Assembly: GCA_021613535.1 (NCBI GenBank)
Contig: CP075492.1
Coordinates: 18,104,001 to 18,168,000, forward strand
DNA from: Adineta vaga
Lineage: Eukaryota > Animalia > Rotifera
Length of the DNA stretch: 64,000 nucleotides
Direction: 5' to 3'
Under the pieces are notes generated by a model. It was not told the DNA's origin and did no database searches. It was given only the letters and a program-made list of their open reading frames with translations. The translations under genes and the position numbers were made by a program. Positions 1,244-43,248 of this stretch are shown here, piece after piece. Numbering within the stretch: position 1 is the stretch's first letter; the number at the start of each line of letters is the position of its first letter.

Positions 1244-1387
1244 AGTAAATCTATATCTGTAATAGTATATAAAACAATCTTTCGCAGGTTTTTGAATAAA
1301 AAAAGGAAGAAAACTAATTTGGTTTTGGAAAATGATGTTATGGGAGAATTTGCGAGAGATGTCGAGAACGACGCGAATGATGAATTT

Positions 1388-1493
1388 AATGAAGTTGATC
1401 GTTACCTTCAAACAAAATAAATCATTAAAATAGTGGAATAAACACTCCCTAATATTTGCACGACTTGCTGTGGAGTTCCAGCAAATTCGGCTA
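1388..1493 (+). pseudogene. Short remnant of a hAT transposase C-terminal dimerisation domain
   Basis: Broken translation NEVDRYLQ...LK*WNKHSLIFARLA...GVPANSA resembles the hATC pattern; contains a stop and frameshifts. Confidence 0.45.
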
Positions 1494-2638
1494 GACAGAT
1501 TTTAGAAAAACCAAATGTTGTAGGTTTGTCGATGATAAGTGATATTGTTTTTGTTTATTTATTTACTCTATAATTTGAAACAGAGTGAATGAAATTGTAT
1601 AAAACATTGATATGAATCAGTGATTGATATCATTATCTGATTAGTTAATCTGGGTATTTCGCATATTTCAGTAAGTTACAAATATCTATTTTTCTACATT
1701 AAAAAGGCATACTTCATCGTTTCTAGTGACATTTTGGATTGATAAACGATCAGATGATTTCAAAAAATGATGTCTAAAAATTTTTTTTATCTTCTAAATG
1801 GAACAAAAACATACATTTAATCAGATTGTTTTCATAGATAGCTTAGAATATTTGTTCACAATGGAATGTAATAAAGTTTTTAATAAGCCACAAAGGTGAG
1901 AACATTTCAAGAAACTGTATACATTTGTAGAAAGAAAAAAATATTTCTTACAAAGAGATGATTATAAATTTGTGTTCGATTCAATCTGATTGTTTAGTCG
2001 TGAAAAGGCGCTCATGCCACAAGGCCATACGAGAGAAAGAAAAAACTATTTTCGTTTTGCTTTTTCTTTCGTGATGATCATGGAATTTTTTTCATTGTTT
2101 GTAGAGAAATAATGGATTCTGTTTTGTCAAATTTCTTTACAGTAACAGACAAACACAAGATTCGACTTTTTTTATGCCATTAGTTACTTATCGTACTAGA
2201 TATTTCAATCTATAAATGTCTTTTACTACAGATTTTCTTAGACATTAAAAACTAATTGTTCATAGAGACACAATTCATTTAGAGAGTTACTCAATATTTC
2301 TCTATATTTTCTTCTAAAAATTAGTACATAAACTTTCAAACAATTTTCTTTATGAAACACTGCGAAGATGTAATCATCAGAACAACATGGAATTTCTAAT
2401 GTTTGAAATACAAAATATCCGAAATCTTTCTTCAAATATTTAGTAAGAAAAAAACAAACAAAAAACATAGCAGTGAAGAATGATCTTACATAAGTTTTGA
2501 ATAAGATACTTTTTAATTGCTTGATCTCACAATTCATTCTTTGTTTGGAACTTTCAACCTGAGGGTGTGAATACAAGAGACTCACGTTCCGTTTAAAAAA
2601 GGTTAAGTTTTGTTAAAAATATTCTTCTCATAAGTTAA

Positions 2639-5335: not shown

Positions 5336-5527
5336 TATGTGTTAGTCAGAACTGTTTTCTTTCTATTTTTTGTATTTCTCCTTTCTGGTAATAGAATCAA
5401 GCAAAATCGCTTTTTTTTGCTGGCATTCTCCAACTTACAGTAGGAAGAACGAAAGAAACAGTCATTACTCATACTGGTATTTTCTTTATTAAAAAAAAGC
5501 ACCGAAAAAAAGCCTGCGAGTATAAAC

Positions 5528-9281: not shown

Positions 9282-10632
9282 ATGTTGACAACATTAAAAT
9301 ATATTTCAATCGTTCTTTTATTTACAATTGCTAATGGATCATTTCGTTTGTACAATACCAATGTATCGAATAGTCATGACTACGCACATTGCTTATATTC
9401 ATTTAAATTGAACTGTATCTTAAATGAATGGCAATTAGTTCCTTACTGTCTTAGACATAACGTGTCAAGTATTGATGTTAACACTGAACAATGTTATGGA
9501 AATACAAACTACACATTTAAACAGTTGAAATTTCGAAATATCGACAGTCATGATCTGTACAAATGGAGTGCACCCATCGACATAATCAATCATTATCAAA
9601 AATACTTAGATAATAATGATTATTTTTTAGGAGGTTATCACTATTGTAACTGTTCAGGTAAGAGAATATTGCGCATTTCTTCTTCTACTCATATTGAAAT
9701 GAATGTTTCTAGCTGACTGGTTTGGTGATCGATGCCAATATTCGTTTGTGGATTCCGATGGGATAGAGACGTTTAATGAAATAGTCAGATCCCAAAACTT
9801 GGCAAAATCAAACTTGGTATACGCGTACAAGATTGTCCATGATCCATCTATGCTGACATGCTATGAAGGACTCCGATGTCATTCAACAATTTGTCTCGAT
9901 TGGCGACAGATTTGTGACGGTAGTTTTAATTGCGAGCAAGGCGAAGATGAGCCTGAAGAATGTTTTCTACTTGAAACGAATGAATGTGAGAAGGACGAAC
10001 ATCGCTGTCGATATGGTATGTGTATTCCAAAAACGTTTCTTACCGATTTCAGCTTTGATTGTTCCGATCTAAGTGATGAAACTGAAACTTATACAAATGG
10101 CTTGAATAATGACTGGACTTGCTTCCGTAATTCAGAACTTACATGCGACTTTCTTTTATGTAATACCGGATTTTTTTCATGTGGTGATGGACAATGTGTG
10201 GATCAGTCTTCTTATGACTGGGCATTATCGTGTAACAACGGTCGTGACATATTTCTTCGTCGAAGTCTTCTACTTTCTGCTCCGTCGAACGATATCAACA
10301 GTTCGAAGAATATTAGCTTTGAGTGTTGGTATTTAATGCTATGCATCTCTGGTATTAAGAACGTACAACTCTTTGAATACGATTATGCGAGATGTATATG
10401 TACGGAGGAGTCTAGATCCGAGAGGCAATGTGTAGAGTCTTTCAAAAATTATTGTCCAGTATCGTTTGTATATCAAACTAAATATAATTTTCTCTATCCG
10501 TTCGTTCGATTTCTCTATCACGACACGCCGAATATTTCTTCTGAATGGTGGTTGCCAACTCATTTTTGTTACAATAAAAGTCATTGTTCTACTATTCCTT
10601 TTGTTAGTTTGTCGTTGATCGACGGTTTAGTA
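9282..10632 (+). CDS. 5' half of an LDLa/EGF-repeat 7TM receptor gene interrupted by the 16-kb element
   Basis: Signal peptide from ATG 9282. Phase-1 intron 9658-9712. LDLa repeats such as CLDWRQICDGSFNCEQGEDE. The frame reads ...SLIDGLV up to the left TSD. Confidence 0.85.
10625..10632. repeat. Left 8-bp target-site duplication GTTTAGTA
   Basis: Identical to 26743-26750. The bases on either side differ between the two copies, so the length is exactly 8. Confidence 0.95.
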
Positions 10633-10812
10633 CAGAGATGCGCAAATACAAATACAACTTGTATTCTACCTTTTCTATATATATATTATTTTCAAGTATA
10701 TATTCTTTTCAAACCATATATATTTACCTCAAAAGATGCTTCCTTATAACTGCGTCCTCACAGGTTTACCCATTTTTCGTTCAGTATACTACAACTATTA
10801 TTCATGTACTGG

Positions 10813-11043
10813 CCCTACCTTATGCTGTGAAGCTAGAATCGGTTGTCATGTATTGTCATGTATCGACCCTACTTTCCCCTTTTCAGCTAGAATCGGTTGT
10901 CTTGTATTGTCATGTATTGACCCTACTTTCCCCTTTTCAGCTAGAATCGGTTACCTTGTATTCTCATGTATTGTCATGTATTGACCCTACTTTCCCCTTT
11001 TCAGCTAGAATCGGTTGTCATGTATTGTCATGTATTGTCATGC
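10813..11043 (+). repeat. Left subterminal repeat array
   Basis: Three full copies and one degenerate copy of ACCCTACTTTCCCCTTTTCAGCTAGAATCGGTT, separated by 10-bp (CATGTATTGT)-type subunits. Confidence 0.9.
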
Positions 11044-11312
11044 ACTCACTTTATACAGACCTAATATCTAGTATCGGCTAATTTGCTGTGATATGTCTCT
11101 TTATCAACCAAGCAGCAATGACAAAAATTCATGAGGTGCACTTTTTAGTTCTTGTTAAGTATCTAGTTCTACCTTTTCTCATTATTCCAATTTTCCCTCA
11201 CAGGATGAATAGCGAAATTGAGGATCAGTATTTTCAGTCGAATGCTTCAGTAAGTTTTTTAAAATACCTACAAATCGTTCTATTGAAAATCATTGATTAC
11301 TCACTTGTTTTT

Positions 11313-14300
11313 CCCATCTTGCTCGATCTAGATCAGGATACAATTCGTATGATGATCCTATTATTTTTATTTTTTACCCTCTTGCTCGATCTAGATCAGG
11401 ATACAATTCGTATGATGATCATATTATTTTTATTTTTTACCCTCTTGCTCGATCTAGATCAGAATACACTTCGTATGATGATCCTATTATTTTTATTTTT
11501 TACCCTCTTGCTCGATCTAGATCAGGATATAATTCGTATGATGATCCTATTATTTTTATTTTTTACCCTCTTGCTCGATCTAGATCAGGATACAATTCGT
11601 ATGATGATCATATTATTTTTATTTTTTACCCTCTTGCTCGATCTAGATCAGGATACAATTCGTATGATGATCCTATTATTTTTTTTTTTACCCTCTTGCT
11701 CGATCTAGATCAGGACATAATTCGTATGATGATCATATTATTTTTTTTTTACCCTCTTGCTCGATCTAGATCAGGATACAATTCGTATGATGATATATTT
11801 TTTTTATTTTTTACCCTCTTGCTCGATCTAGATCAGGATATAATTCGTATGATGATCCTATTATTTTTTTTTTTACCCTCTTGCTCGATCTAGATCAGGA
11901 TACAATTCGTATGATGATCCTATTATTTTTTTTTTTACCCTCTTGCTCGATCTAGATCAGGATATAATTCGTATGATGATCCTATTATTTTTTTTTTTAC
12001 CCTCTTGCTCGATCTAGATCAGGATACAATTCGTATGATGATCATATTATTTTTATTTTTTACCTCTTGCTCGATCTAGATCAGAATACACTTCGTATGA
12101 TGATCCTATTATTTTTTATTTTTTACCCTCTTGCTCGATCTAGATCAGGATACAATTCGTATGATGATCATATTATTTTTATTTTTTCTCCTCTTGCTCG
12201 ATCTAGATCAGAATACAATTCGTATGATGATCCTATTATTTTTATTTTTTACCCTCTTGCTCGATCTAGATCAGGATACAATTCGTATGATGATCATATT
12301 ATTTTTATTTTTTACCCTCTTGCTCGATCTAGATCAGGATATAATTCGTATGATGATCCTATTATTTTTTTTTACCCTCTTGCTCGATCTAGATCAGGAT
12401 ACACTTCGTATGATGATCCTATTATTTTTATTTTTTACCCTCTTGCTCGATCTAGATCAGGATACAATTCGTATGATGATCCTATTATTTTTTTTTTTAC
12501 CCTCTTGCTCGATCTAGATCAGGATATAATTCGTATGATGATCCTATTATTTTTTTTTTTACCCTCTTGCTCGATCTAGATCAGGATACAATTCGTATGA
12601 TGATCATATTATTTTTATTTTTTACCCTCTTGCTCGATCTAGATCAGGATACAATTCGTATGATGATCCTATTATTTTTATTTTTTACCCTCTTGCTCGA
12701 TCTAGATCAGAATACACTTCGTATGATGATCATATTATTTTTTTTTTACCCTCTTGCTCGATCTAGATCAGGATATAATTCGTATGATGATCCTATTATT
12801 TTTATTTTTTACCCTCTTGCTCGATCTAGATCAGGATACAATTCGTATGATGATCATATTATTTTTATTTTTTTACCCTCTTGCTCGATCTAGATCAGAA
12901 TACACTTCGTATGATGATATATTATTTTTTTTTTACCCTCTTGCTCGATCTAGATCAGGATATAATTCGTATGATGATCCTATTATTTTTATTTTTTACC
13001 CTCTTGCTCGATCTAGATCAGGATACAATTCGTATGATGATCATATTATTTTTATTTTTTACCCTCTTGCTCGATCTAGATCAGAATACACTTCGTATGA
13101 TGATCCTATTATTTTTATTTTTTACCCTCTTGCTCGATCTAGATCAGGATACAATTCGTATGATGATCATATTATTTTTATTTTTTACCCTCTTGCTCGA
13201 TCTAGATCAGGATACAATTCGTATGATGATCCTATTATTTTTTTTTTTTACCCTCTTGCTCGATCTAGATCAGGATACAATTCGTATGATGATCATATTA
13301 TTTTTATTTTTTACCCTCTTGCTCGATCTAGATCAGGATATAATTCGTATGATGATCCTATTATTTTTTTTTTACCCTCTTGCTCGATCTAGATCAGGAT
13401 ACAATTCGTATGATGATCATATTATTTTTATTTTTTACCCTCTTGCTCGATCTAGATCAGGATATAATTCGTATGATGATCCTATTATTTTTTTTTTACC
13501 CTCTTGCTCGATCTAGATCAGGATACAATTCGTATGATGATCCTATTATTTTTATTTTTTACCCTCTTGCTCGATCTAGATCAGGATACAATTCGTATGA
13601 TGATCATATTATTTTTATTTTTTACCCTCTTGCTCGATCTAGATCAGGATACAATTCGTATGATGATCATATTATTTTTATTTTTTACCCTCTTGCTCGA
13701 TCTAGATCAGGATACAATTCGTATGATGATCCTATTATTTTTATTTTTTACCCTCTTGCTCGATCTAGATCAGGATACAATTCGTATGATGATCATATTA
13801 TTTTTATTTTTTACCCTCTTGCTCGATCTAGATCAGGATACAATTCGTATGATGATCCTATTATTTTTATTTTTTACCCTCTTGCTCGATCTAGATCAGG
13901 ATACAATTCGTATGATGATCATATTATTTTTATTTTTTACCCTCTTGCTCGATCTAGATCAGAATACACTTCGTATGATGATCATATTATTTTTATTTTT
14001 TACCCTCTTGCTCGATCTAGATCAGGATATAATTCGTATGATGATCCTATTATTTTTATTTTTTACCCTCTTGCTCGATCTAGATCAGGATACAATTCGT
14101 ATGATGATCATATTATTTTTATTTTTTACCCTCTTGCTCGATCTAGATCAGAATACACTTCGTATGATGATCATATTATTTTTTTTTTACCCTCTTGCTC
14201 GATCTAGATCAGGATACACTTCGTATGATGATCATATTATTTTTTTTTTACCCTCTTGCTCGATCTAGATCAGGATACAATTCGTATGATGATCATATTA

Positions 14301-16101
14301 TTTTTATTTTTTACCCTCTTGCTCGATCTAGATCAGGATATAATTCGTATGATGATCCTATTATTTTTTTTTTTACCCTCTTGCTCGATCTAGATCAGGA
14401 TACAATTCGTATGATGATCATATTATTTTTTTTTTTTACCCTCTTGCTCGATCTAGATCAGGATATAATTCGTATGATGATCCTATTATTTTTTTTTTAC
14501 CCTCTTGCTCGATCTAGATCAGGATACAATTCGTATGATGATCATATTATTTTTATTTTTTACCCTCTTGCTCGATCTAGATCAGAATAGACTTCGTATG
14601 ATGATCATATTATTTTTTTTTTACCCTCTTGCTCGATCTAGATCAGGATACACTTCGTATGATGATCATATTATTTTTTTTTTACCCTCTTGCTCGATCT
14701 AGATCAGGATACAATTCGTATGATGATCATATTATTTTTATTTTTTACCCTCTTGCTCGATCTAGATCAGGATATAATTCGTATGATGATCCTATTATTT
14801 TTTTTTTACCCTCTTGCTCGATCTAGATCAGGATACAATTCGTATGATGATCATATTATTTTTATTTTTTACCCTCTTGCTCGATCTAGATCAGGATATA
14901 ATTCGTATGATGATCATATTATTTTTATTTTTTACCTTCTTGCTCGATCTAGATCAGAATACACTTCGTATGATGATCCTATTATTTTTATTTTTTACCC
15001 TCTTGCTCGATCTAGATCAGGATATAATTCGGATAATGATCCTATTATTTTTATTTTTTACCCTCTTGCTCGATCTAGATCAGGATATAATTCAGATAAT
15101 GATCATATCATTTTTATTTTTTCCCATCTTGCTCGATCTAGATCAGGATACAATTCGTATGATGATCATATTATTTTTATTTTACCCTCTTGCTCGATCT
15201 AGATCAGGATATAATTCGTATGATGATCATATTATTTTTATTTTTTACCTTCTTGCTCGATCTAGATCAGAATACACTTCGTATGATGATCCTATTATTT
15301 TTATTTTTTACCCTCTTGCTCGATCTAGATCAGGATACAATTCGTATGATGATCATATTATTTTTATTTTACCCTCTTGCTCGATCTAGATCAGGATATA
15401 ATTCGTATGATGATCATATTATTTTTATTTTTTACCTTCTTGCTCGATCTAGATCAGAATACAATTCGTATGATGATCATATTATTTTTATTTTTTACCC
15501 TCTTGCTCGATCTAGATCAGAATACACTTCGTATGATGATCATATTATTTTTTTTTTACCCTCTTGCTCGATCTAGATCAGGATATAATTCGTATGATGA
15601 TCCTATTATTTTTTTTTTACCCTCTTGCTCGATCTAGATCAGGATACAATTCGTATGATGATCATATTATTTTTATTTTTTACCCTCTTGCTCGATCTAG
15701 ATCAGGATATAATTCGTATGATGATCATATTATTTTTATTTTTTACCTTCTTGCTCGATCTAGATCAGAATACACTTCGTATGATGATCCTATTATTTTT
15801 ATTTTTTACCCTCTTGCTCGATCTAGATCAGGATATAATTCGGATAATGATCCTATTATTTTTATTTTTTACCCTCTTGCTCGATCTAGATCAGGATATA
15901 ATTCGGATAATGATCCTATTATTTTTATTTTTTACCCTCTTGCTCGATCTAGATCAGGATATAATTCAGATAATGATCATATCATTTTTATTTTTTCCCA
16001 TCTTGCTCGATCTAGATCAGGATACAATTCGTATGATGATCATATTATTTTTATTTTTTTCCATCTTCCTCGATCTAGATCAGGATACAATTCGTATGAT
16101 C
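11313..16101. repeat. Tandem array of 61-64-bp units (about 75-77 copies, estimated from length)
   Basis: Unit CCCTCTTGCTCGATCTAGATCAGGATACAATTCGTATGATGATCATATTATTTTTATTTTTTA. Contains the palindrome GATCTAGATC. Length variation comes from the T-run; there are no unique spacers. Confidence 0.97.
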
Positions 16102-16442
16102 TTTCCGACAGTGGAATGTTATATAAAACGGACAAATGATGGAAAGTTGCATAGTATTTTGATTCTTTTAATCGGTTTTTTTTTGTAGCTTGCTAATTCG
16201 GAAGCAGTTGAACAAGCCATAGACGCAATGTGGAAAATACTGACTAAATAGGTGTGATTTTTTTAAAATTTAATCGGTAAATGAGCTTTATGTTGATGAG
16301 AAAAGTGAAGCAGTGTTCAAAGTTGGGTGGTCTGTTAGCGACCCCTATGGTTTAAATGGTTGATTAGCGGTTATTGGATAGACGAGGGATGATTGGAAAT
16401 GACGGATTCTTCTGTGTTAATCGTTTATTTTTGGTTACGAAT

Positions 16443-17908
16443 ATGTGGTCAAGTTATACTGTACCTCAAGGTACCCATTATATTCATTACATTTTACCAA
16501 GTGCTAAGTTATACTATAAACTTCGTACGTTATTGGACGATGTAATAGTAATGAAAGAAAATGGACAAAAGTCGATCATTATTGGTGTTGAACATGAAAA
16601 TCGGAAACGCTTATTTTTAAACGTAACATTCGATGAATTATCGAAGGTATTACAAAGCTTAGATGTATCGAAACGAACACTATACGAAGTTTTGTGTGAA
16701 AAAAAAAATTGTAAATTATACTTTGATGTTGATATTCATATAACAAATTCGTTGACAATGAACGTTGAAGAATCATTGTTAATTCTACAAAATCTTTTCC
16801 ATTGTTTTATTTTGGATTGGACTAATAAATACACGAAAAAATCAACCGGAATTGGGGATCATTTTCTTGTTTTATGTGCAACAACAGAAGCAAAATACAG
16901 CTATCATTTAATATACACAAACACAGAAATTAGATTTCATTCACAACAAATTGTATTTAAATTTATTAAAATGTTATTACAGCATTGTTCATATTTTATA
17001 TTATCGCATCCATGTCATGAACATCTCGTACAACCAAATAGTATGAATGCAGCAAATGATCTCGATGGCTGTATTAAATGCTTACAAATGATTTTAATGC
17101 ATATAGATTTTTGTAGTTGTATAATACCTGAAACAAAAGTAACCTGTAAAAACTTTCAAAAACTTCTTTTCAAAAGTAATCTTATTTTTTTGTACTTCAC
17201 ATATATAGTTTTATTTTATTCTTGCTAGATTCAGATGGTTTATATCAATGGATTTTTGATCTTAATGTTTATAGTAATAATCAACAATTTAGATTATATC
17301 AATCGACGAAATTTGGAAAACACAATCCTTTGTTACCAACATCAGATTTTCCTTTTAATCCATGCAATAAACAATACGATATATCTATGAACAATGATGG
17401 CATTGATCATTCGATGCTTAAACATTCATTAATAGCTTATATATCAGATGATTCAAATATTGTAGTATTATCTTATAATGATAATAAATGGGTAGCGATG
17501 AATGAACATGATAATTCTATAACTGAATTAACTCCTAGTTACAATTTCGCGGATTCAAGCACAATAGCTAAATTTACAATTCAAAATAACTTAATTCAAG
17601 CAACAGCGACAAAATGCAAACAAGATTTATCTAACAATGAAGAATATTATAAAACTTTTATTTTCAAATTAATGAAAGAAACATATCATACGAACGGTCA
17701 CATACAATCGTGTCAAAAGGGTAGCAAAAATCGATCTATATTATTTTTTAATATTGGCGGTGATTTTCGATTTTGTGAACGATTACAACGTCATCACAAG
17801 TCAAATCAAACTTGCATCATCATCGATACATTTACAAATAATTACCAGATTAAATGTAAAGATCCAGACTGTAAAAACTTCAAACTGCCATGGAAAAAGA
17901 TATTTTAA
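16443..17908 (+). CDS. PRIMPOL: PrimPol-like archaeo-eukaryotic primase-polymerase with C-terminal UL52-type zinc finger, about 470 aa (start codon uncertain)
   Basis: Motif I YEVL...CKLYFDVD, motif II KYSYHL, motif III FDLNVYSNNQQFRLYQSTK, and zinc finger RFCERLQRHHKSN...KCKDPDC. A phase-1 GT-AG intron at 17176-17228 joins the two ORFs in frame. Confidence 0.88.
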
Positions 17909-18633
17909 CTTCTCTTAAATAAATATTGAACTATTGCTCATAATGATACAGAAGAATTTTTGAATATTTCAAACTTTGCTTTGAAAATAACTTCGAACTT
18001 TTAAACGTTATCTATTTCATCTCGTGATCATTGAACCATGTATCATAAAAAAACACATGAGATACTGAATGCATTGAAGAAAATTCATAACAATCTGGGA
18101 GATTAGAAATCATATTAGACTAATTAAATCATTTCGAAAAATAAAAAAATTTAATCAACTTTCATCCAAAGAAAATAATATAAAAATAGAATATTTGTCA
18201 GAAAAAAATTGCTCCTAGTCCAATAAATTTGACACTATACTATGAATCCGTATCATGTAAATCAGAATTTTAGATATAATTTTCTACCGTGGTAATATGA
18301 TAGATGTATCTTGAGTTTCAAATCACATCTATCTATTTAATTTTAGCGTATTTCGGTTAGTGGCTCCATCTTGTGATCATGTTATTTTTTTCTAATATTG
18401 ATCTGTCTACTATTAAATTTAAAAAATTATTTAGTGAAGAATGATAATAGATATATAAGTTACATCTTAATTGTATGTAAGCTGTAATCATATTGTCTAT
18501 GTAACTTCATACGTTTGCACTCACCGTTCGTTAATCGAGTCGACAAAAAGAAGAAAGAATTTTTAAACGAACATTTTATATATTTTTTTCAATTTGATGT
18601 TTCAAACCTGTATCATAATTTAATATTTTTTAG

Positions 18634-21600
18634 GAAAAGAAATCGATCTGGACCGTTCACAACCATCACTTACTCACATCTTTGCTGTTCGTGGCATGTT
18701 AGGAAAGAAAATGCAAACATTTGATGCCGATGCATCTGAATACATTCAACCTTATTTAAATGCTTTGAACTCAAATAAACCACATGTTGGCATTAGTTCC
18801 CGTGCAATTACATCTTACGAACAAGCTGTTGAACGTCGTGGTGCCGAAATGATTGTGCGTATTGCATCAAACATACAATATATGAAAAATATTCTTGAAA
18901 TTATTCATGAAGTTAATAATATCGATTTTCATGAATGTAATCAAAATTTTATTGACCAGGTCGAAGCTATAATTCAATTAAAATATGGATTATCAACAAA
19001 CAATTTACCAAAAAATACTGCATTGGCAACGAATACACAATCGAAAATGATCATTACCAAACAAACATGTGAAGAATCAGTATCCATATTTCTTAGTTTA
19101 TTGATGCCGCAACATTTTACACTGATGAATTCTCGTATTAACAATGATGTAAAAGAAACACAATCTGAATTAACCTTACAAACAAAAATTGTAAAACTTA
19201 CATATCGTGTCTTCCATAAAACAACATTACATGGTAACGACGGTATATTGAAAAATATTGACAAAGATTTAATCAGTTATTTATTGGAACGTATGGTTCG
19301 TCGTGGTATTTTAAAGAAAGGATATTATTTAAAATCCGAACATTCTGTTAAATATGAATCATATTTGAAACATTTACCATCAAATGAATTGGAACAACAA
19401 GAATTAGTATTTGAATTAAATAAGCATCACGTATCATGGGAAGAATATCAAGAGATTTACGAAAATAGCTATATTTTACCAGCTAATACATCTTTGACGG
19501 CCGATGGTTTTCGAGAATTGCAAAATCAATATCCTTATGGTGTTATTACAAACGATACTCAAATTCGTCAATCACCACTTATTTCAAATCCTTCAAATTC
19601 TTTACAAGAATCGACAACAGGTAATTAAGTAAAGCATATTAGTGTTCTTCAGAAAGGTTTGATATTATTTTGTTATAAAGAAATGCTTGAAAATTTTTGC
19701 CTTCACTTTTCACAGAATTTCTTTTTTTTTAGCAATCCATCATCTTCATACGTTGAATCCGTCATCGAGTGATGCACCAGATAACCAACAAACAACTAAT
19801 ACTGCAATACAAGATGATCCATCTTTAAATTTAAGTAAGATGTTTCAAATTTTCGCTCTTGTAGCTTACCGCCTATTTCATTTCACAGGCAACATCACAA
19901 CTGGTGATATTTCAGTTTTACAAAATTATCCAGAGTTGTCCGAAATTTTACAACTGAATACTGGTAGGAACTTTAAATACACCCTCTAGTTTAATAATTA
20001 TTGTAAAAACTGTATTTCATTTCAGGAGATCGAGAAATCAATTGTCAACGATCACTAACAAGTACTGTAAATCGATCCAATAACCAATCAAAACAAACAA
20101 AAAGTAAGGACTTTTTATTGTATAAAAATAATGTAATCGAAAATATTCATTTTCTACTTATTTACTATAATTTCATCATAGTTGGACATCATGCTATTTT
20201 GGAACCAAAAAACGATGATTCTTCGATCAGTGAAATGGAAGTACAACAACAAGGTGATATTTTTAAACAAGGTAAATACTACATTATTACTTTTTTATTT
20301 TCATAATTTTTTCGCTCTTTTCTCTTTTTGCGTCTTATAGAATCAGCATCATTGGATAATTTACAAAATATTATTGATACATCAGTCAATCATGAAAATT
20401 CAACACCTGCATACAAAGAAACTGGTAGGCTGAAAAGAAAGAAATCGTCATCAATTGCAATATATTATTTATATGTCCTTTTTTGTCTTATTTTGTGTAT
20501 GTATTCTAGAAAAAAATCGATCAACTAGTCAAGATTCGTCGATTTTACAAGATGAAACAGATGTTCAACAAAATCATGCATCAAAAACCTTATCATTAGC
20601 TGTGCAGCATCAATCTGAAATGATCAATCAAGATAATCTTCCTTTACATGGTATTCCGCTTATCTATTTTTCTTTAAAATATGTCGCTCTTATTTTTGTA
20701 TTAACCAACAAAATTCTTTTTTTTCTTGTTTAGAAATCGAAACTTATAAGCAATTCAAAACTCATGTTCATATTACATCAACACCTGATGAATTCTTTTC
20801 TAATAGTATAGTTATATATTGTATTTCAATACACTTTTTTCATCTCTCATTAAGGTAATCAACCAAATCATATTACAATACCGGCTAGCGGACAGTGCAA
20901 TGAAAAATCGGATCATGTACACAAGGACTGTTCAGCATCAACAAATGGAAGTCAAATAAGTGAAATATCATCAAAGGAAAACTTAAGCCGTGAAGGTATT
21001 TTCAGATATACTTATAATATGTATTACTTAGCAAATATTTTTGATTTTAGACAGCAACAAATCCAAAAATCTTGAAGGTTCATCATCGTCTTCCAAAAAT
21101 GCATTGGATGCATTTGATCCAGTACGAGCATTAGAAGATCCAAAAACTATACCACGACGAATTATGTTAAAATGCAAACAAATGCTTTTATTCGGCTCAC
21201 CAATCATAACAAAAACGAGTTGGAATCGTCGATTTGGCGGCGATTCCGATTTATGTCAATCAGCCGTTCAACTACTATTCCATGCCAAACTGTTGTTGGA
21301 AGGGCAATTTACAACTACTGCGACCAAGTCTTATCTCAGCTGGATTAAAATATTACCAAATGATTCCACCAATATAGCAATTACATTGAATTTTCAACAA
21401 AAAAAATTAGATATATTTGGTATAACATGGGAACAGTATGCGTCATCGTTCAAAAAAAATCGAATTTGGTCATAACAACGCTACAACATTAATATCAAAA
21501 GAAGGTGCTGAAATTCTCCGATCCAAACCATACCAGGATGTGGGTTTCATCATGGACGAATCTATCGTATTAACAAAGAAGAGCAAAAGTAATGCGTCGA

Positions 21601-22519
21601 ATATTTTTGAAAAAATGTAAATCTTTTGTCTTTATAGATTCAGAAACATTGAACATACCGGAACCAGTACGCAATCCGACCATTAATGAATCAGAATCAT
21701 CAGTTTCGATGATGTCAGTTGGTAAGTTTTCTGTATAAGCATTTTCATTTGTATGACTGTTTTTTGTAATATTTAGAATATGCTGAACCTGATCTAACAT
21801 TAGATAATGTCGCCAATATTACATTAGTTCAAGATGATTCAGGTAATACTTAGATTTATCGACTAATTTCATTTCAATACACTGTATGATGGATAGTTTA
21901 TCGGAATTTTATTATTTTATAAGCAAAGTTGCTTCAGTGAGAAAATTATCTTATAAAAAGCATCTAAAAAGAAACAATATACTTCCTTTTGGAGCTGATT
22001 TGTATAAGAATTTTAAAATTATAGATTCAAATTCAAGTGCTGCAAATTTGGCTAGTACTGCTGTGATTCCATCTCAAGCTGCTGCAACTAGTCCATCCTC
22101 TGATGAAATTCAAACTATTCATTTGAACTCAGTCACCACAGGTAACAAGCTTTAACATTTCTTTATTTTATATGTTTAGAAAAACGACGAAGTTTTCAAA
22201 ATAGGGTAGTTTGAATTCACATGAATTGTACAATCTATCGTTGAATTATCTGAGTACTTGATATCTAATCATTCACATGTTTGACATTATTCGAGATACT
22301 TAAATACAGAGTTCAGTATATAAATATTATTAATTTCAACTTGCCGTTTGAAATATTTGATTATAGCAGTCAACAACGTATTATTAAAATGATTGTTTTT
22401 ATATTATAGATATCTCATCGAATGCCTCAGCATCAACGAATTCATCAACACCAAAACGAACAAGACGTCTTATAAGTCCAATCAGAACAAGGTCAAAAAG
22501 TCGACGTATTGAAAATTAA
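18634..22519 (+). CDS. Multi-exon protein of uncertain function: possible DUF3987/AAA+ helical lid, two copies of a related domain, S/T/Q-rich micro-exons and a basic tail; 5' end not found
   Basis: Exon 18634-19620 is open (QPSLTHIFAVRGMLG...FDADA...RRGAEMIVRIA...ITKQTCEES). About a dozen short GT-AG exons follow, with a larger exon near 21051-21590 that has a frameshift in the A-run at ~21452-21459. Ends KRTRRLISPIRTRSKSRRIEN* at 22519. Confidence 0.6.
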
Positions 22520-23207
22520 AATTATCTTTGTTTGATGTATTAATTTCTGCTTTGTTTGTTTTGTCTGTGTGTTAGCCATTTATTTCTGCTTCATCTTGTG
22601 TTTTATTGTGAACTATTCTTGTTTTTTTTTGTTTACTTTTTGTTATACTTGATACTCTTGTGTTCTTATAACTGTTTTTCTTGTTTTCCTATTTACGTGT
22701 AGGTCTAGTAATTGAAAATTATTTAATCAAGTTAAGAGATTTAATGCTAGTCTTTATTGTTTATCTTGTTCTTATATTGCATATCATATGCAATTCATAT
22801 CATCTTAATGAACATTCGTATGATCTTCTAGAAAATAACTCTTTTTTTTCGTTTTCTGTTTTGTTAAATAACTGACATGCTTAGTAATTATTTGTTCGAA
22901 CAGATACATTTTCTCGTTTGCTTCATTTTTTGTTTGTTATACATATACTGCTTGCATCATATTGAATAAATATGAAATTGAACTGTGATAATGAAATTGT
23001 AATTGTCATCAATAAGGAGAAAGTGAAATTTTATTATACATTGAGTAAAACGATTAGCTCTTTATAATTTCAACATTTGACTACAAAATGAGTGACGAAT
23101 TACATAATATTTTTTAGCTATATGTGATAAAAATCTGGAAATTTGTGATTTATTTCTTATAGATATATTTATACTGCATAATTTTATTTTATTTTATCGA
23201 CATTATC

Positions 23208-25521
23208 ATGTCATCTAACTATTTACTGACAGATAATGAAGAAATTTACATCATTACATTACATAGACACTTCAAAATCAATGTTCTGCAATTGATAAAT
23301 GATCTGAATAATCGTATGGATCATGATATACCAACTCGAGTGACCGATATTAAAATTATGGTTAATACAATGTTTAATACTGATTTATCCGTTACAACAG
23401 TAAATGAAATAATTAATCGATTAAATAATGGAGAGTTGAAACAGCTCTTTCACTCCTATGATGTTGATCAGTTGCTAACTAATTATATTGCAAGTTCAAT
23501 ATCTGATACCAACGCAACATTAATTTGTCTTAAACCATTTACAAATACATGTCTAACCTGTAAACAGGAACTTCAAATTTCATTTAATCAATATGTCACA
23601 ATTTATAATATGGGATCGATCATTAAAGGTGGTGTTTATTATTCTTCTTGCAACAATTGTAGAATGAAATATTATCCAAATTATTATGAACATATCACTA
23701 TTGGTGCAAAATTTGTCACACCAGCATCAATCTATAACCAAAAATATATTTACTTTGGTGGAAAGAAAGTTTACTCTACAGAATTGTTGATACATTTTAC
23801 ATCGGCGTTTCTCAGACAATATTCTGGTTTTGAAAACTTTCAGAATTCATACAATTTAACCATCAAAAAATATATTACTTTATCTGCAAATACCCATACA
23901 GTAAGCATTTATGACATCAGAAACAAAAAATATTTAGAAATTTCTCACAGTTTTGAAATAACAGAAAAACAATGAAACGGATGTCATATATATTTCATCT
24001 ATTTTAATGTTGTTGTATATTTTAGTCGAATGAAATAATGTCGGAAATTAGTCGTGAATATTTTTCAAATATCTGGTTCATTTATCAATTATGTTTATTT
24101 ACCTTCTTTATGAATGATACTTTGCAACTTGAAATACCAAAGTTACTCGATGATTTATCAATTTATAAATTTTTTGATGTTAACTATGATCAATGGTACA
24201 GTGATTTTGTAAACCATTGGGCAATACACCATCGAACCCATCCATGTGATTCTACAAAACAATTCCAAGGTGCTGATTGCATGACGGCATTTGTTGTAGA
24301 CGGAATGCAAAAAGTGGCAAGAGTAATCTGTAATAACAAAAACAAAATGCTTGTAACCAGTGAGTTTCCTGATGGCATCTACGTCGGATGTGGCAATACG
24401 CCCAAATCAAAATCTGGTTTATGTGAACGCTGTAAAGAAGAAGAAATAATACACGATAATGAAACATACTTGAAAACCAATGATGACAAAGGTATCTATG
24501 ATGATCCAACAACTGGCTGCAATGTATCAAGAGAAGATCGGTACGTAAAAAATGTTAATCACTGAATCTGTTTCATTATCATTCAGTTTAAGTTGCATAC
24601 AATTGATTCAGAAAACATCAAGAGGAAATTTACAGATCTACTAACATTTATCAATATGATTTTTTTATTATTATTATTTAAGTACAGAGAATTAGAAATA
24701 TGATAATTATACTCATATTATTTCTGAAATAAAAACTAGATTATTCTTGGTAAATTGATTTTATTCCATCATTTAAGAAATTCTGTACTGATGAGCTTGA
24801 CAATGATGATTACAAAGATATAGATGTGATATTATTCTTTGAATTGAAATATAAAATAATACAGTTTGATCATTCGTACGGATTTAATTCTAATAATTAT
24901 TTTACTTTTAGTTTCGTCGATATGGAGAAGAAAATTTCACAAGGTATTATATATACATTATCTCCATGTGGAATAATCATTGGCTTTGATGAAGTATATC
25001 ATTCAGAATCCTGTTATATAGCTTTGTGGCATTTATTCAGAATGATTAGTCTAGTTGACAATCAACATCATCAATTTTTACCAAATATACTGATTTATGA
25101 TAATGCTTGCAGTTTATATACTTATTTTTGGAATCGTTATGACAAGATTGAGATTAATCGACGTATTTTACAAACACCATCATCAAATTTAATTTCCCGA
25201 TGTTTATTTTTTATTGATCGTTTTCATCAACAAAATCACAAACGACCAATGTGTCAAAAAGAAAGAAACATCGACTATGCATATAAAGGAGCAATCAAAA
25301 TCAATACTGAAGCTGCTGAACAACGAAACAGTATATTGAAGCAATATCAAAATGCCTTATCCTCATATTCTTCCAAAAAGATTCGTATTACTTACTTAAT
25401 ATTATTTCATTTAATGAATGCCGAGCGTAACATGTGTGATGGTCAATTCGAATACAATCGAAATTATGCTCAAGGCAACTTTTCCGCCAATGACAATTCA
25501 TTCAATACAATTTCCGATTAA
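23208..25521 (+). CDS. KDZ (Kyakuja-Dileera-Zisupton) transposase with CxC5 and CxC6 cysteine clusters, about 605 aa
   Basis: Exons 23208-23900, 24026-24540 and 24912-25521 (phase 0 and phase 2 GT-AG introns) give a stop-free frame. CxC5-like CLTC...CNNCRMKYYPNYY. CxC6-like HPC...C..AFVVDG...C...GCGNTP...CERC. Catalytic-region motifs PCGII...SES, YDNAC, IDRFHQQNH...C and NTEAAEQ. Confidence 0.85.
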
Positions 25522-26146
25522 CACAACTACATCGTTTTATTTTCTCGTCATCTACACAATAAAATTCATTATCTCAACAAAATTCTTGTAGTTTGTTCTA
25601 CATCATCAGACTTTTACTTTTTTGTCTTTCTTTTTCTTGTGATTTATTATTCATATCGTCACAATAAAACAATTCTAAAAATCTTTACACAAAATCAATA
25701 TATCCGAAAACACGCAACTACAAAAATTAACACTTATTTTAAAGTAAATCGAGTTTTTTCTAAAGAAAAATGCATATGAGCAATTTTCTAACCTATCTAA
25801 ACTACAACAACACTCCGAGTCACAAAAGATTCACTCGTACCATTATATCTTCTTTAACATTCATAATTTTGGTCATGTTGGTTTCAAACATATTCTTTCA
25901 TAGTAGTACCAATTACTAAGACGACACTCATCATAATATTCAAAAACAAACTTCCATCATGAGAAGCATAAATTCCGCTTAATACCAAAACTAGAACCGC
26001 CACAGGCGCGTATATAAAAGTATACCTTAACTACTTCAAACTTTTACCTCCAAAATCGTGTCAATACACTACACAATAGCACATGATGGTTAAAGTTCAC
26101 CAGTTCTAAACTACACACCCACAAGTATAGACAGTGTATGCAAACA

Positions 26147-26683
26147 CATGAGAATACATGACAACCGATTCTAGCTGAAAAGGGGAAAGTAGGGTCAATA
26201 CATGAGAATACAAGACGACCGATTCTAGCTGAAAAGGGGAAAGTAGGGTCAATACATGGCAATACAAGGCAATACATGAGAATACAAGACAACCGATTCT
26301 AGCTGAAAAGGGGAAAGTAGGGTCAATACATGGCAATACAAGGCAATACATGAGAATACAAGACAACCGATTCTAGCTGAAAAGGGGAAAGTAGGGTCAA
26401 TACATGACAATACATGACAACCGATTCTAGCTGAAAAGGGGAAAGTAGGGTCAATACATGGCAATACAAGGCAATACATGAGAATACAAGACAACCGATT
26501 CTAGCTGAAAAGGGGAAAGTAGGGTCAATACATGGCAATACAAGGCAATACATGAGAATACAAGACAACCGATTCTAGCTGAAAAGGGGAAAGTAGGGTC
26601 AATACATGGCAATACAAGGCAATACATGACAATACATGACAACCGATTCTAGCTGAAAAGGGGAAAGTAGGGTCAATACATGA
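26147..26683 (-). repeat. Right subterminal repeat array, inverted relative to the left array
   Basis: Eight copies of CCGATTCTAGCTGAAAAGGGGAAAGTAGGGT at 54- or 74-bp spacing, with (CAATACATGN)-type 10-mers between them. Confidence 0.92.
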
Positions 26684-26742
26684 TAGTGTATAAAAGCTAT
26701 AAAAAGTAAAGTACAAGTTGTATTTGTATTTGCGCAGCCCTC

Positions 26743-26750
26743 GTTTAGTA
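26743..26750. repeat. Right 8-bp target-site duplication GTTTAGTA
   Basis: Identical to 10625-10632. Confidence 0.95.
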
Positions 26751-29700
26751 TGTATAGAGGATACGAAAAACTTAAATATGCTTGGGTTAATGCTTCTCTT
26801 TTCCACTTGTCGTATTCATCATACATCGATTCCAGCTGAGGACAAACGATTATTCTATTGTGACAGATCGATGAAATTCATTTCAAAACATCGAGTAATG
26901 GATACTCATTTCGATTGTTTATACGAAGAAGACGAAGTCTCCACGTTAAATACTACCGTTATAAATAGTCTCAATCTGACATATCATTTTAAATGTGCAG
27001 AAACTGATCAATGGCTTCCACGGCCACTAGTCACTAGCGGCTTCTGTCAAGATAACTCCGATAGATTGTACATCGGAAGTTGCAAAACAGCATTTGATAT
27101 AGGTTGTCAATTCTTACGAGGTCTTGGTTCACACCCTGTAGATTATCTATTTCAAGAAAATTGTAACGGTGTTTTGAAGTTAACGTTTTCGAAAGAAAAT
27201 GAAACAGACGAAACAAGCTGTAACGAATGGCCATGGCCAATGTATCGACGATGTGACGGTCACTGGGATACCAGTGATGGAGAGGACGAATTGAATTGTT
27301 CAAACACAATTCTTTCACACATCACACATACTATTTTAAAATGTAGCATGACCGAACATTATTGTGCGCATCGAAATAAAGCTATTGGTTGTCTAGCAAA
27401 AGAGCGTGCTGGAGACGGGATTGTCGATTGTTTAGGAAAAACCGACGAAAGAGTAATATCATGTGCTCTTTCATATCCTCTTCATTCGTTTACATGTTCG
27501 AATGGCGATTGCGTAAGGTTAGCTAATCTCTGTGATGGACATAATGACTGTCCCAATGGCGACGACGAACTTGTTTGTTCTTGGATCGTCTTCAATGTGT
27601 GCAAACCCTCTGAGTTCCAGTGCGAATCATTTTGCATTCCAAGAGCGAGACAATGTGATGGCTTCATCGACTGTCCATCGAATGGCGAAGACGAATGGTT
27701 CTGCGATCTTGGATATCGAAGAATACCACAATTCTCTCTAGATACAGTTGAAAAATACCCTCCCGTTAGCGATGCGCCACGATTGATGACTGCGACTGTT
27801 TCTCATCAGCTCATATCAATACCACTCATTATCTCAACTAAAAGTAGAAATATCAATCTACTGAATCGATGGTTCTGTAATCAGGGTATAATTGTCACAA
27901 AAAGATCGTTAAATGTTGAATGTTTATGTCCACCTAGTTACTATGGTCCAAGGTGTCAATACCAAGCAGAGCGTTTATTGATTACTATTCGAATTGATAC
28001 ACCAGCTAGTCTAAGTCGACATAAAAATCAACAAAATGTCATTCGATTAGTCGCTTGTTTGCTGCTTGATAATACAGTCGCTCATCATGAGCAAATTTTA
28101 CATGAAACTTTAATGAAACAAATGTTCTATCTTAACTACCCACGACCGCCGCCAAAACAGCGTGGTAACTGGTCTGTTCGTATCGATGCATTTTCTGTGA
28201 CCAAATTCAATGTCGCTTTTCATGCATCGTGGTTATTCGATGTTCCATTTTCGTTTCTTCCTGTTAATCGACTCGTATTGCATGTTACACTGAAAGATCA
28301 CAAAGCTTGTAACACACTCATTTGCGTTCATGGTAGTTGCAAGAGATATTTGAATTCACCATATCGTGAATATTGTCAGTGTGAAGAGAACTATTCGGGA
28401 GATCGATGCAATGTCACAGCCAGATGCGCATGCGCTTACGGTGGAAAATGTGCCAATCAACATTCAACATTGATTTGTGTCTGCCCTCTTGGTCGTACAG
28501 GTAGCGAATGTCGCGTTTCGTTCGATCCGTGTAGTCATATCGACTGTCAACATGGTGGAACGTGTCTGCCGTTGGATGAACGACAGTCAACGAAGTTGTT
28601 CATTTGTTCATGTCGCACTGGATATTACGGATCTCGTTGTGAACATGCTGATGCTAAAATTCAGATTCATTTCTCGAAATCTCTTTTCCATCATAATCTA
28701 CCGCTGTCTGTCGCTGTTTTCGTTCATTTTCTCGTGCTACAGAATAACTCGCCTGGCATTTTGTTTGTTCAAAACCGGTTTTTATATCAAAAAGTACAGC
28801 TAAATAAACCACTCAATGTTTTTAACAAGAATCAAAAGTATCTTTCAAGTTTTATTCTTCTTCAAATCTTCTTCGAACCGGATAATTACGGCTATTACAT
28901 CGCGGGAATTATCAAAAGCAATATGACGACCATCGTTACAACAGTTCACGAGTGGAATCGATGTCTGCACGTTGATAAACTGCTTCTAAATGCAACCATT
29001 CGTAGTTTTCCGTCAAGAAAAAAAGTGAAATATTATGGCCGTGCTTGTGAAGTGAGCAGCAGTATCAGATGGTTCCATGATGAAGCGTATCTATGTTTTT
29101 GTAACAAAGATCGTATCCCCGATTGTCTCTATTTTCAAGAAGAAGATACACAATGTACAACAAATTATTGTCAAAACAATGGTAGATGTGTACAGAACAA
29201 TTTCGATGGTATTTGGGACTTCGGCTGTGTATGCGATGGATGTACCTACGGGTCACTATGCCAGCTGACAACATCACAGTACACGCTCTCGTTAGATGCC
29301 ATGCTTGGCCAAGACATTCTAGAAAATGCGTCACTTACAAATCAACCCGTTTTGATAAAATTAGTATTGGCAGTAATTGTTCTAATGCTCTCTCTTGGAT
29401 TTTTGTCGAACATACTGGCGTTTATAACATTCAAACAACCAAAGGTTCAAGAATTTGGTTGTGGTATGTATCTTCTCTGTCTCCCTTTAATCGGTCAATT
29501 AGGATTGTCAATATTTGCTAGTCGATTCTTTTACCTGTTGGTAACACAGATTTACAATGTTAATAATCGTTTTGCTGTTCATTGGGGTTGTGTCGTGTTG
29601 GAATATTTACTCAGCGTATGTCCAATGCTGTTTGATTGGTTAACAGCGTGTGTCGCAGTGGAACGAAGCGTTAATATTATTAAGGGCGCCTCTTTCAGAA

Positions 29701-30284
29701 AAGGTGACAGTGTCTGGTGGGCTAAGCGCATCATTCTTGTCCTCGTAGTTGTTGTTTTGAGTAGTGCATGGCATGAGCCATTTATTCGTCATCTGATCGA
29801 TGATCCACGAGCTACCGTTCAGCACACATGGTGCGTAGTTAGATTTCGGTGGGTCTGGCTCGAACACTATCGTTTAATCATTAATATAATTAATCTTATT
29901 GTCCCTGTGTCGATAAACTTAGTGGCTACGGTGTTTTTATTACACAAATCAACACGAATGAAACAGACATTAGTTCATAGAACAATCGATAAAAACTATC
30001 TCACGATATTCAAGACACAGATTCCTCTATATGGAAGTCCACTTGGATTGATTTTGCTCAGTACGATGCGGCTGATATTCTCGTTCACACTGGTCTGTAT
30101 AATTCATCAGTGGCAGAAGTATATCTATTTAACGGCATATTTTATTTCATTTGTTCCAAAGATGGGTACATTCCCTATTTTTGTGTTGCCAGCCAAGATC
30201 TACAAAGCTGAGTTCAAGAGCTGTATTCAAAGATCGAAAAGAACATTAGTTGTTTTATCTCGATCCAATGCTCTTAGAAAATAG
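26751..30284 (+). CDS. 3' half of the interrupted LDLa/EGF-repeat 7TM receptor
   Basis: Resumes in frame (CIEDTKNL...). LDLa repeats, EGF repeats (CLCPPSYYGPRCQY), then a rhodopsin-like 7TM region (CVAVERS). Collinear with the paralog at 56363-61282. Confidence 0.9.
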   Translation, partial: CIEDTKNLNMLGLMLLFSTCRIHHTSIPAEDKRLFYCDRSMKFISKHRVMDTHFDCLYEEDEVSTLNTTVINSLNLTYHFKCAETDQWLPRPLVTSGFCQDNSDRLYIGSCKTAFDIGCQFLRGLGSHPVDYLFQENCNGVLKLTFSKENETDETSCNEWPWPMYRRCDGHWDTSDGEDELNCSNTILSHITHTILKCSMTEHYCAHRNKAIGCLAKERAGDGIVDCLGKTDERVISCALSYPLHSFTCSNGDCVRLANLCDGHNDCPNGDDELVCSWIVFNVCKPSEFQCESFCIPRARQCDGFIDCPSNGEDEWFCDLGYRRIPQFSLDTVEKYPPVSDAPRLMTATVSHQLISIPLIISTKSRNINLLNRWFCNQGIIVTKRSLNVECLCPPSYYGPRCQYQAERLLITIRIDTPASLSRHKNQQNVIRLVACLLLDNTVAHHEQILHETLMKQMFYLNYPRPPPKQRGNWSVRIDAFSVTKFNVAFHASWLFDVPFSFLPVNRLVLHVTLKDHKACNTLICVHGSCKRYLNSPYREYCQCEENYSGDRCNVTARCACAYGGKCANQHSTLICVCPLGRTGSECRVSFDPCSHIDCQHGGTCLPLDERQSTKLFICSCRTGYYGSRCEHADAKIQIHFSKSLFHHNLPLSVAVFVHFLVLQNNSPGILFVQNRFLYQKVQLNKPLNVFNKNQKYLSSFILLQIFFEPDNYGYYIAGIIKSNMTTIVTTVHEWNRCLHVDKLLLNATIRSFPSRKKVKYYGRACEVSSSIRWFHDEAYLCFCNKDRIPDCLYFQEEDTQCTTNYCQNNGRCVQNNFDGIWDFGCVCDGCTYGSLCQLTTSQYTLSLDAMLGQDILENASLTNQPVLIKLVLAVIVLMLSLGFLSNILAFITFKQPKVQEFGCGMYLLCLPLIGQLGLSIFASRFFYLLVTQIYNVNNRFAVHWGCVVLEYLLSVCPMLFDWLTACVAVERSVNIIKGASFRKGDSVWWAKRIILVLVVVVLSSAWHEPFIRHLIDDPRATVQHTWCVVRFRWVWLEHYRLIINIINLIVPVSINLVATVFLLHKSTRMKQTLVHRTIDKNYLTIFKTQIPLYGSPLGLILLSTMRLIFSFTLVCIIHQWQKYIYLTAYFISFVPKMGTFPIFVLPAKIYKAEFKSCIQRSKRTLVVLSRSNALRK

Positions 30285-42798: not shown

Positions 42799-43248
42799 TA
42801 ATTCTAAAATTCATAAAGAAAATATTACTTTACCATCGCAATGATGAAGGTTTGGGTGTGGGTGAAGGAAGATGTTGTGATTCTGGAATAAGCAACATCG
42901 TGGAATAGGAAGTATTCTCTCATAAAACGGACTGACTTATCTGTTGTAGATCAGACATAAATGAGTGAGGGCGAAAGTGTGAGTCAAAAAAACTAAATTT
43001 TCATAAGACAGACTTTTGCAGCAGTCATTCAAAGAAACAGTCCAGAAAATGTATGTGCATGCTTATTCTTTTTTTTGTGAAGAATGACGTGGTTGTGTTT
43101 TGACAAATTTATTTAATGACATCATTTTCGTGCAACACAAGTTGGATAAATACCCACTTGATGGTTTTCTCCCATTTTAAGAAAATTAACGTAAAATTAA
43201 AATTTACGTGAGATGACATTAAATCAACTACTAATATGAAACCATCTG

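Follow-up and report, generated by a model that had tools for sequence, protein, structure and literature searches.

A multi-copy KDZ transposon of Adineta vaga that carries a PrimPol-type gene and a truncated helicase-family gene

We analysed a 64,000-nucleotide stretch of the genome of the rotifer Adineta vaga (assembly GCA_021613535.1, contig CP075492.1, positions 18,104,001 to 18,168,000 of the forward strand; hereafter the window), which contains a large transposon of the KDZ group. The element occupies positions 10633-26742 as one mobile unit of 16,110 bp. Between two terminal inverted repeats (TIRs) it holds a short subterminal repeat array at either end, a long internal tandem array, and three genes predicted to encode a PrimPol-type primase-polymerase, a protein of the DUF3987/MCM-like helicase family (gene 2) and a KDZ transposase (Table 1). 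An earlier interpretation made without database searches, here called the sequence-only reading, had described three spliced genes on one strand downstream of a 4.8-kb array, and our exon models agree with that layout.

Table 1. Positions of the element's features and of the interrupted host gene within the window.
Feature	Position	Strand	Basis
5' part of interrupted host LDLa-EGF membrane receptor gene (outside element)	9703-10632	+	Pfam, frame restoration
Left target-site duplication copy, 8 bp, GTTTAGTA	10625-10632	.	exact repeat at both ends
Left TIR, 31 bp	10633-10663	+	exact 25-bp core 10639-10663
Left subterminal array, 54-64-bp units, 4 core copies	10803-11053	+	repeat analysis
Internal tandem array, 60-64-bp unit, 76.7 copies of 63 bp	11308-16100	+	repeat analysis
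PrimPol-type primase-polymerase gene (predicted), 488 aa, intact	16389-17908	+	exons 16389-17175, 17229-17908
Gene 2 (predicted), 14 exons, about 894 aa, 5'-truncated	18633-22519	+	annotated protein P0001 mapped to window
KDZ transposase gene (predicted), 605 aa, no internal stop	23208-25521	+	exons 23208-23900, 24026-24540, 24912-25521
Right subterminal array, 8 core copies, inverted relative to left	26123-26683	-	repeat analysis
Right TIR, 31 bp	26712-26742	-	exact core 26712-26736
Right target-site duplication copy, 8 bp, GTTTAGTA	26743-26750	.	exact repeat at both ends
3' part of interrupted host LDLa-EGF membrane receptor gene (outside element)	26751-30284	+	Pfam, frame restoration

The same 8-bp target-site duplication (TSD), GTTTAGTA, adjoins both ends, and the TIRs agree at 28 of 31 positions. 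This imperfect match comprises the exact 25-bp core, which occurs twice in the window, in inverted orientation, and in none of 100 shuffled sequences, and an outer 6 bp of which only three positions agree; the right end reads CTC. Together with the 4 and 8 cores of the oppositely oriented subterminal arrays, these features bear out the termini proposed by the sequence-only reading. When the element and one TSD copy are excised in silico, 9703-10632 and 26751-30284 join into a host frame of 1,487 codons without internal stop. LDL-receptor class A repeats are found in both halves of this host gene and EGF matches in the second (Pfam). A likely paralog (1,641 aa, LDLa and EGF matches) lies on the minus strand at 56363-61288 and may buffer the insertion. 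The GC content of the three element genes, all on one strand, is 0.28-0.31, compared with 0.39 in the host frame. A search for the ends of nested elements between the genes returned 1 and 3 direct 9-mers, where 1.6 and 2.6 were expected, and inverted 11-mers were absent. As internal TSDs and TIRs do not exceed chance, nothing points to a nested element with ends of its own.

The two subterminal arrays face each other, with units of 54-74 bp overall and 82-97% complementarity among the 25 longest arm pairs; they are likely transposase-binding sites. Each of the 77 units of the internal array contains the palindrome GATCTAGATC and a T-rich tract, a 63-bp spacing recurs in 49 of the 76 unit intervals, and the density of GATC is 47.6 per kb, compared with about 3.5 elsewhere. 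The unit also resembles AG followed by a micro-exon of 15 nt and an intron of 45-49 nt that would start with a GTATGA donor (present in 72 of 77 units) and lead through a T tract to TAG. All copies of the 15-mer have the same length and one frame is open through all 77 units; this is not the frame of the candidate exon upstream (about 11204-11249), which meets stops in 24 of the 77, and the interpretation of the array as micro-exons was not adopted.

For the transposase, the sequence-only reading had claimed an intact CxC5-CxC6-KDZ protein. The 605-residue frame is open, and CxC5 scores 31.7 bits, above the Pfam cut-off of 26.9. The KDZ match, on the last exon, stays under its cut-off (19.7 bits against 26.6; E=7.7e-4), and no Pfam match was obtained for CxC6. 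A relative of the transposase, P0022, matches KDZ with E=1.5e-4. Relatives account for 14 of 249 candidate proteins and come from Rotaria (68-73% over the last exon), Adineta steineri (61%) and Didymodactylos (40%); DGMQK, YDNAC, DRFH and NTEAAEQRN are conserved wherever their models cover these motifs. The catalytic residues are presumably D323, D466 and E536 or E539. In Rotaria, the contigs of the four KDZ clusters P0014-P0017 measure 22.9-23.6 kb and could represent collapsed full-length elements that exceed the present one in size.

The predicted PrimPol protein contains FDVD, SYH and FDLNVY, which we take to be motifs I to III (DxD/SxH/hD), and ends in a complete UL52-type zinc finger (CERLQRHH and CKDPDC), to which Pfam gives a weak UL52 match (E=0.0047). 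Its relatives P0002-P0006 are 48-58% identical to it, and one of them, P0004 from Rotaria, matches human PRIMPOL (PDB 7jk1) over motifs I-III with E=4.7e-8. Motif I is DxD in the element and in three of the four relatives whose models cover it, and DFG in P0006. An acanthocephalan PrimPol (P0008) has DxE at this motif and is 25.6% identical to the element's protein and 23-28% identical to the clade, a divergence that makes recent capture from a host unlikely. Against the metagenome locus L001, dN/dS (the ratio of nonsynonymous to synonymous substitution rates) is 0.37 over 244 codons and 0.34 over 90 codons, and 13 of 21 listed differences from a divergent contig of the sequencing runs described below fall at third positions (p=0.007). 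These coding comparisons show that PrimPol has been maintained by selection. The annotated protein P0001, a fusion of PrimPol with gene 2, lacks the last zinc-finger cysteines kept in P0002-P0005 and P0007 and was for this reason dismissed as an artefact of gene modelling. A contig covering 16286-17950 from a possible RNA run (X16) retains the PrimPol intron; X16 may therefore be DNA, and the contig was counted as evidence neither way. Run X20, from another organism, yielded mainly 151-bp fragments and was left out. A structure predicted from three sequences reached a pLDDT of 37.7 and was not used. Another PrimPol clade, with about 30% identity to the element's PrimPol, is represented on two AT-rich metagenome contigs (L002:106-1086 and L003:586-1056) and could be cellular or derive from another element.

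Gene 2 is the truncated member of the set. It retains a lid, two winged-helix-like domains and low-complexity linkers, and it lacks an ATPase core. An extra base near 21452 in the window is seen neither in P0001 nor in the contigs of runs X1 and X5 and is probably a homopolymer error. Among 37 representative relatives the closest is P0023, which is 54% identical and has the same C-terminus. The Atlas places both the window exon of gene 2 (0.91, 176 of 256 features) and P0023 (0.95, 206 of 256) with DUF3987 primase-helicase clusters; Pfam has no family for P0023. The structure model predicted for P0023 has a mean pLDDT of 62.5, with high values at about 170-480 and 575-685. MCM subunits are its top fold matches (best Foldseek E=0.016; best VIA Z 8.8, with a root-mean-square deviation of 2.9 over 76 residues), and it also matches winged-helix proteins and phage helicases (E=0.002-0.015). 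The fold matches are moderate but mutually consistent. By cluster placement and modelled fold, gene 2 is a member of the DUF3987/MCM-like helicase family, and the helicase relationship suspected in the sequence-only reading holds at the level of the family, although the gene itself has lost its 5' end. P0023 carries 168 additional N-terminal residues with ATPase-core-like motifs, and no Walker A in that model. When P0023 residues 1-170 and a six-sequence profile were searched against the element in six frames, the best E values were 2.1 and 1.5 (control, 6.5e-57). With the ATPase core absent, gene 2 as it stands here cannot encode a working helicase.

Copies of the element were sought in public sequencing data. 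At least half of the sampled words of 16150-26100 were found in 15 of 24 listed runs, all 15 from one organism and seven of them marked as possible sources of the window's DNA, and the window was compared with the assembled contigs of six of the 24, contig depth not being equal to copy number. In run X1, two contigs span 16110-26175 at a depth of 88-92, compared with 25.7 and 28.5 for the flank contigs; in run X5, the longest interior contigs have depths of 420-442 (367-567 for all interior contigs listed), compared with flanks of 157 and 208. Depth over all three genes is flat, at about 2-3.5 times that of the flank. Contigs leading into other flanks depart exactly after 26742 at the right end (five in X1, three in X5), with one in X5 departing after 26744, and at the left end other flanks join at 10633 (two in X1, two in X5, one in X4), 10632 (X4) and 10629 (X1 and X4). 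Read loosely, the depth fits this site plus roughly two to five further copies, all with the three genes. The several other flanks at both ends and the flat depth indicate that the element is multi-copy and young, and not a one-off nest of insertions; the single unit claimed by the sequence-only reading is thereby upheld, and neither of the outcomes that this reading had named as refuting it was encountered.

Copies are nearly identical among the run contigs. The exact left tip is found at about 3 times flank depth in X1, at 1.8 times in X5 and at flank depth in X3 and X4, and in these last two runs the segment 11003-11300 reaches 2.5-3.3 times the depth of the flank. This variation between runs means that samples differ in the end variants they carry, which is a hint of recent movement. 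A left-end variant without about 127 bp (10657-10785) is present in all four runs compared, at 0.4-0.9 times flank depth. No empty-site branch occurred among the branches listed in four runs. As for TSDs at other sites, several flanks are merged in consensus; of those singly resolved, one right and three left, the right flank matches none of the left. The window differs from full-depth run contigs at 16285, 21452 and 22165; these are likely assembly errors, private variants being the other possibility. X1 further contains two divergent contigs, one collinear with PrimPol over 16850-17879 (2,880 bp, depth 10.8) and one matching gene 2 over 19267-21379 (5,651 bp, depth 11.4). They possibly belong to another, older family of this genome, one that perhaps retains the ATPase core.

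Relatives of the element's genes point to a fourth gene. Protein P0005 of Rotaria sp. Silwood2 consists of two OB folds, which match RPA70 with E of about 1e-8, joined to the C-terminal part of PrimPol. Independently, L001 has a match to the end of the P0005 OB region at bases 3-86, on the PrimPol strand and about 310 bp ahead of the start of that gene; identity is 57% across 28 residues, and the score is 34.3 bits compared with a best of 23.1 in 300 shuffles. A single-stranded DNA-binding protein (SSB), a primase-polymerase and a helicase are parts of a primosome. From the two cases in which RPA and PrimPol are neighbours and the one in which PrimPol and helicase are, we infer that an RPA-like SSB, PrimPol and the helicase once formed one module, and the similar depths of the two divergent X1 contigs are a further hint of this. 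The three genes of the element are also similarly diverged from their best relatives (54-58%, 49-54% and 64-67% identity). Loci of relatives were sought more widely: none was found among viral contigs (0 of 29, 0 of 7, 0 of 17 and 0 of 135 candidates, with no TIR matches) or prokaryote genome contigs (0 of 74 and 0 of 183), and metagenomes gave at least 3 among 591 candidates, all shorter than 1.7 kb. PHROGs returned nothing useful for five proteins. Polinton-type genes (pPolB, primase-SF3 fusion, rve integrase, tyrosine recombinase, capsid) had no Pfam match in seven open reading frames (ORFs) of the element and P0001; the space outside the scanned ORFs consists of the array, introns and short arms.

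Taken together, we propose, with a probability of roughly 0.6, that this is a young multi-copy KDZ cut-and-paste element in which PrimPol and the truncated helicase are the remains of an inherited priming module that comprised an RPA-like SSB, PrimPol and a helicase. In this scheme, the KDZ transposase would bind the subterminal arrays, cut at the TIRs and integrate with an 8-bp stagger. Complete relatives would use all three module proteins: element DNA unwound by the helicase would be coated by the RPA-like protein and primed by PrimPol, with bulk synthesis left to host polymerases and copy number rising as a result. In the present family, PrimPol might act alone, or with a helicase and RPA supplied by the host or in trans, and could reprime across the long palindromic array or help to refill the donor gap. 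PrimPol enzymes are distributive and error-prone. Since the SSB and the ATPase core are missing and no processive polymerase gene was found, the present family is not a complete self-replicator, and the full self-replication considered in the sequence-only reading is not supported for it; priming or gap repair, the milder option of that reading, would be the likelier role of PrimPol. A wider proposal, which we regard as tentative, is that bdelloids hold an undescribed KDZ lineage whose complete members encode a self-priming replisome of RPA70-like SSB, PrimPol and MCM-like DUF3987 helicase, the present element being a reduced form that is still mobile. Such members might open and prime their own DNA and amplify before or after excision, in a manner distinct from Polintons and casposons.

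Several observations weigh against the inherited-module interpretation. The module is decaying here: besides the lost ATPase core, the RPA OB part is absent from the element (best E 0.76 when searched). The neighbouring RPA exon in L001 has an in-frame stop, and P0005 is a fused gene model. The P0023 model has no Walker A, and its Foldseek match to MCM is weak, at best E=0.016. Linkage of PrimPol and KDZ was seen in this species only, no contig of a relative with both having been obtained, and the listed contigs (the longest per cluster) of the PrimPol relatives P0003-P0007 and the KDZ relatives P0010-P0022 have no size in common. Splicing and enzyme activity of the element's genes are predictions. 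Finally, giant KDZ elements are described, in the excerpts available of that work, as carrying fixed, unrelated insertions (PMC12477816).

The last point leads to the alternative that PrimPol and gene 2 are carried along passively, as cargo. A KDZ element of the ordinary type could have captured part of a separate primase-helicase-SSB element or of a host region, which then became fixed, with the transposase alone mattering for movement. The truncated helicase, the missing RPA and the linkage confined to one species agree with such a history, as do the fixed nested insertions and accessory genes reported in the same excerpts for giant KDZ elements (PMC12477816). The selection detected on PrimPol covers the whole time since its split from L001 and could predate a capture. 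Capture should nevertheless be reconciled with the lack of any internal TSD or TIR above chance, with reading frames that are still open in PrimPol and in the 14 exons left to gene 2, and with the similar divergence of all three genes from their relatives, and the distance of the PrimPol clade from P0008 (23-28% identity, DxD compared with DxE) speaks against recent acquisition from a host. We consider passive cargo less likely than the inherited module, though a serious rival to it.

At the other extreme, the present family might be self-synthesising: it would excise, use PrimPol to copy its entire 16 kb extrachromosomally, starting at an origin within the 63-bp array, and reinsert. The iteron-like array, with 77 phased palindromes and T tracts upstream of an intact PrimPol gene, and an intact transposase would suit such a cycle, and depth relative to the flank does vary between samples. 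However, the element has neither ATPase core nor SSB, no family-B or other replicative polymerase was found in the seven ORFs and P0001, and copying by a distributive, error-prone enzyme sits poorly with copies that are nearly identical. This mode of replication appears very improbable. The explanation by unrelated insertions nested at this one site, or by a chimeric assembly, is already largely refuted and hardly credible. Its only footholds are the three positions at which the window departs from run contigs and the 4.8-kb array, which is spanned by none of the aligned contigs; the TSD with its restored host frame, the flat multi-copy depth with contigs crossing gene boundaries in both DNA runs compared over the genes, and the contigs that lead from flank into element at the left end in four of four runs all contradict it.

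Elsewhere in the window, positions 776-5341 and 42076-42810 hold two genes with caspase domains and a TPR-rich ORF that matches ADP-ribosyltransferase weakly (E=0.0033). Two neighbouring plus-strand ORFs of 444 and 443 aa at 44450-47132 have no Pfam match and are possibly a tandem duplicate or a split gene.

If the inherited-module interpretation is true, the element would represent another route to copy gain, that of a spliced cut-and-paste transposon which lacks a capsid, carries PrimPol and belongs to a lineage with RPA and MCM-like genes. The accessory genes of KDZ elements would then gain a testable job. Eukaryotic integrating elements with DNA-synthesis genes of their own are otherwise Polintons and polinton-like viruses in the literature examined. 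The apparent recent movement in a cultured, asexual model animal and the interruption of a host gene make both mobility and the role of PrimPol testable in existing lines. Should the genes be only cargo, the element would still define a giant KDZ family that goes unmentioned in the main text of the bdelloid transposable-element survey, where Zisupton, KDZ and primase never appear (PMC7943196). In one supplement, among the 12 of 21 files covered, sheet Ar2018 contains at least one family labelled Zisupton by automatic annotation, with two copies of 8.2 kb. Outside Böhne 2012, Iyer 2014 and Repbase, which were beyond our scope, we found no description of a KDZ element with PrimPol. Searches for Zisupton with primase and for bdelloid with PrimPol returned no papers; those for DUF3987 with transposon, and for PrimPol with self-synthesizing transposase in eukaryotes, returned prokaryotic work only, as judged by title and by abstract, respectively. 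The partial texts retrieved for KDZ or Zisupton with helicase revealed no link between them, and those for Adineta vaga with Zisupton (including PMC5718144) no such element. The element combines KDZ-group membership with an unusual set of replication genes as cargo that appears to be undescribed.

The element was compared with known systems. By its transposase domain, TIRs and 8-bp TSD, it is a KDZ-group element that resembles the Zisupton/Dileera type. According to excerpts of the relevant papers, to which the remaining citations also refer, 8-bp TSDs characterize Zisupton and the Dileera element Zisupton-1_PGr (PMC12730594), and the shared features extend to a multi-exon gene for a KDZ transposase with a CxC cluster (PMC12730594, PMC9297572). 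The transposase is short, at 605 aa, compared with 1,166-1,367 aa for Zisupton proteins of Pristionchus (PMC9297572), and the cargo is PrimPol and a DUF3987/MCM-like gene rather than TET/JBP; the word 'primase' has no occurrence in PMC12730594 or PMC9297572. Kyakuja elements differ in having a 7-bp TSD, CA..TG ends and no TIRs (PMC12730594), whereas the present element has an 8-bp TSD, TIRs and a right end reading CTC. The giant KDZ elements of Ectocarpus and Chlamydomonas are similar in exceeding 10 kb, in moving extra genes along and in being multi-copy; their accessory genes are mostly of unknown function or nested transposable elements, with primase unmentioned in the excerpts (PMC12477816).

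With respect to the priming genes, the closest cellular counterpart is PrimPol itself. The match of P0004 to human PRIMPOL over motifs I-III and the UL52-type zinc finger are shared features, while motif I of the element is DxD rather than DxE and the gene resides in a mobile element. AEP (archaeo-eukaryotic primase)-helicase fusions are known from polinton-like viruses (PMC12220804), and these viruses, as well as the primase-DUF3987/VirE modules of phages and plasmids, resemble the element in combining an AEP primase-polymerase with a helicase in an integrating element. Here, by contrast, no capsid genes were found, a KDZ transposase takes the place of an rve integrase or tyrosine recombinase, the genes are spliced, the primase is of PrimPol/UL52 type, the helicase is MCM-like and not SF3 or SF2 (superfamily 3 or 2), and an RPA-like gene occurs in the element's relatives. 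Among transposons, the name self-synthesising is given to Polintons and casposons (PMC4779613). Polintons/Mavericks and casposons share with the element large size, TIRs, a TSD, an integrating enzyme and a DNA-synthesis gene of their own. They differ in relying on a family-B polymerase, protein-primed in the case of Polintons (PMC4779613), together with an rve integrase or Cas1, and in the viral genes that Polintons add; none of these was found in the seven ORFs of the element and P0001. The element may thus be best viewed as a transposon with primosome parts of its own, unlike a polinton, which has its own replicase.

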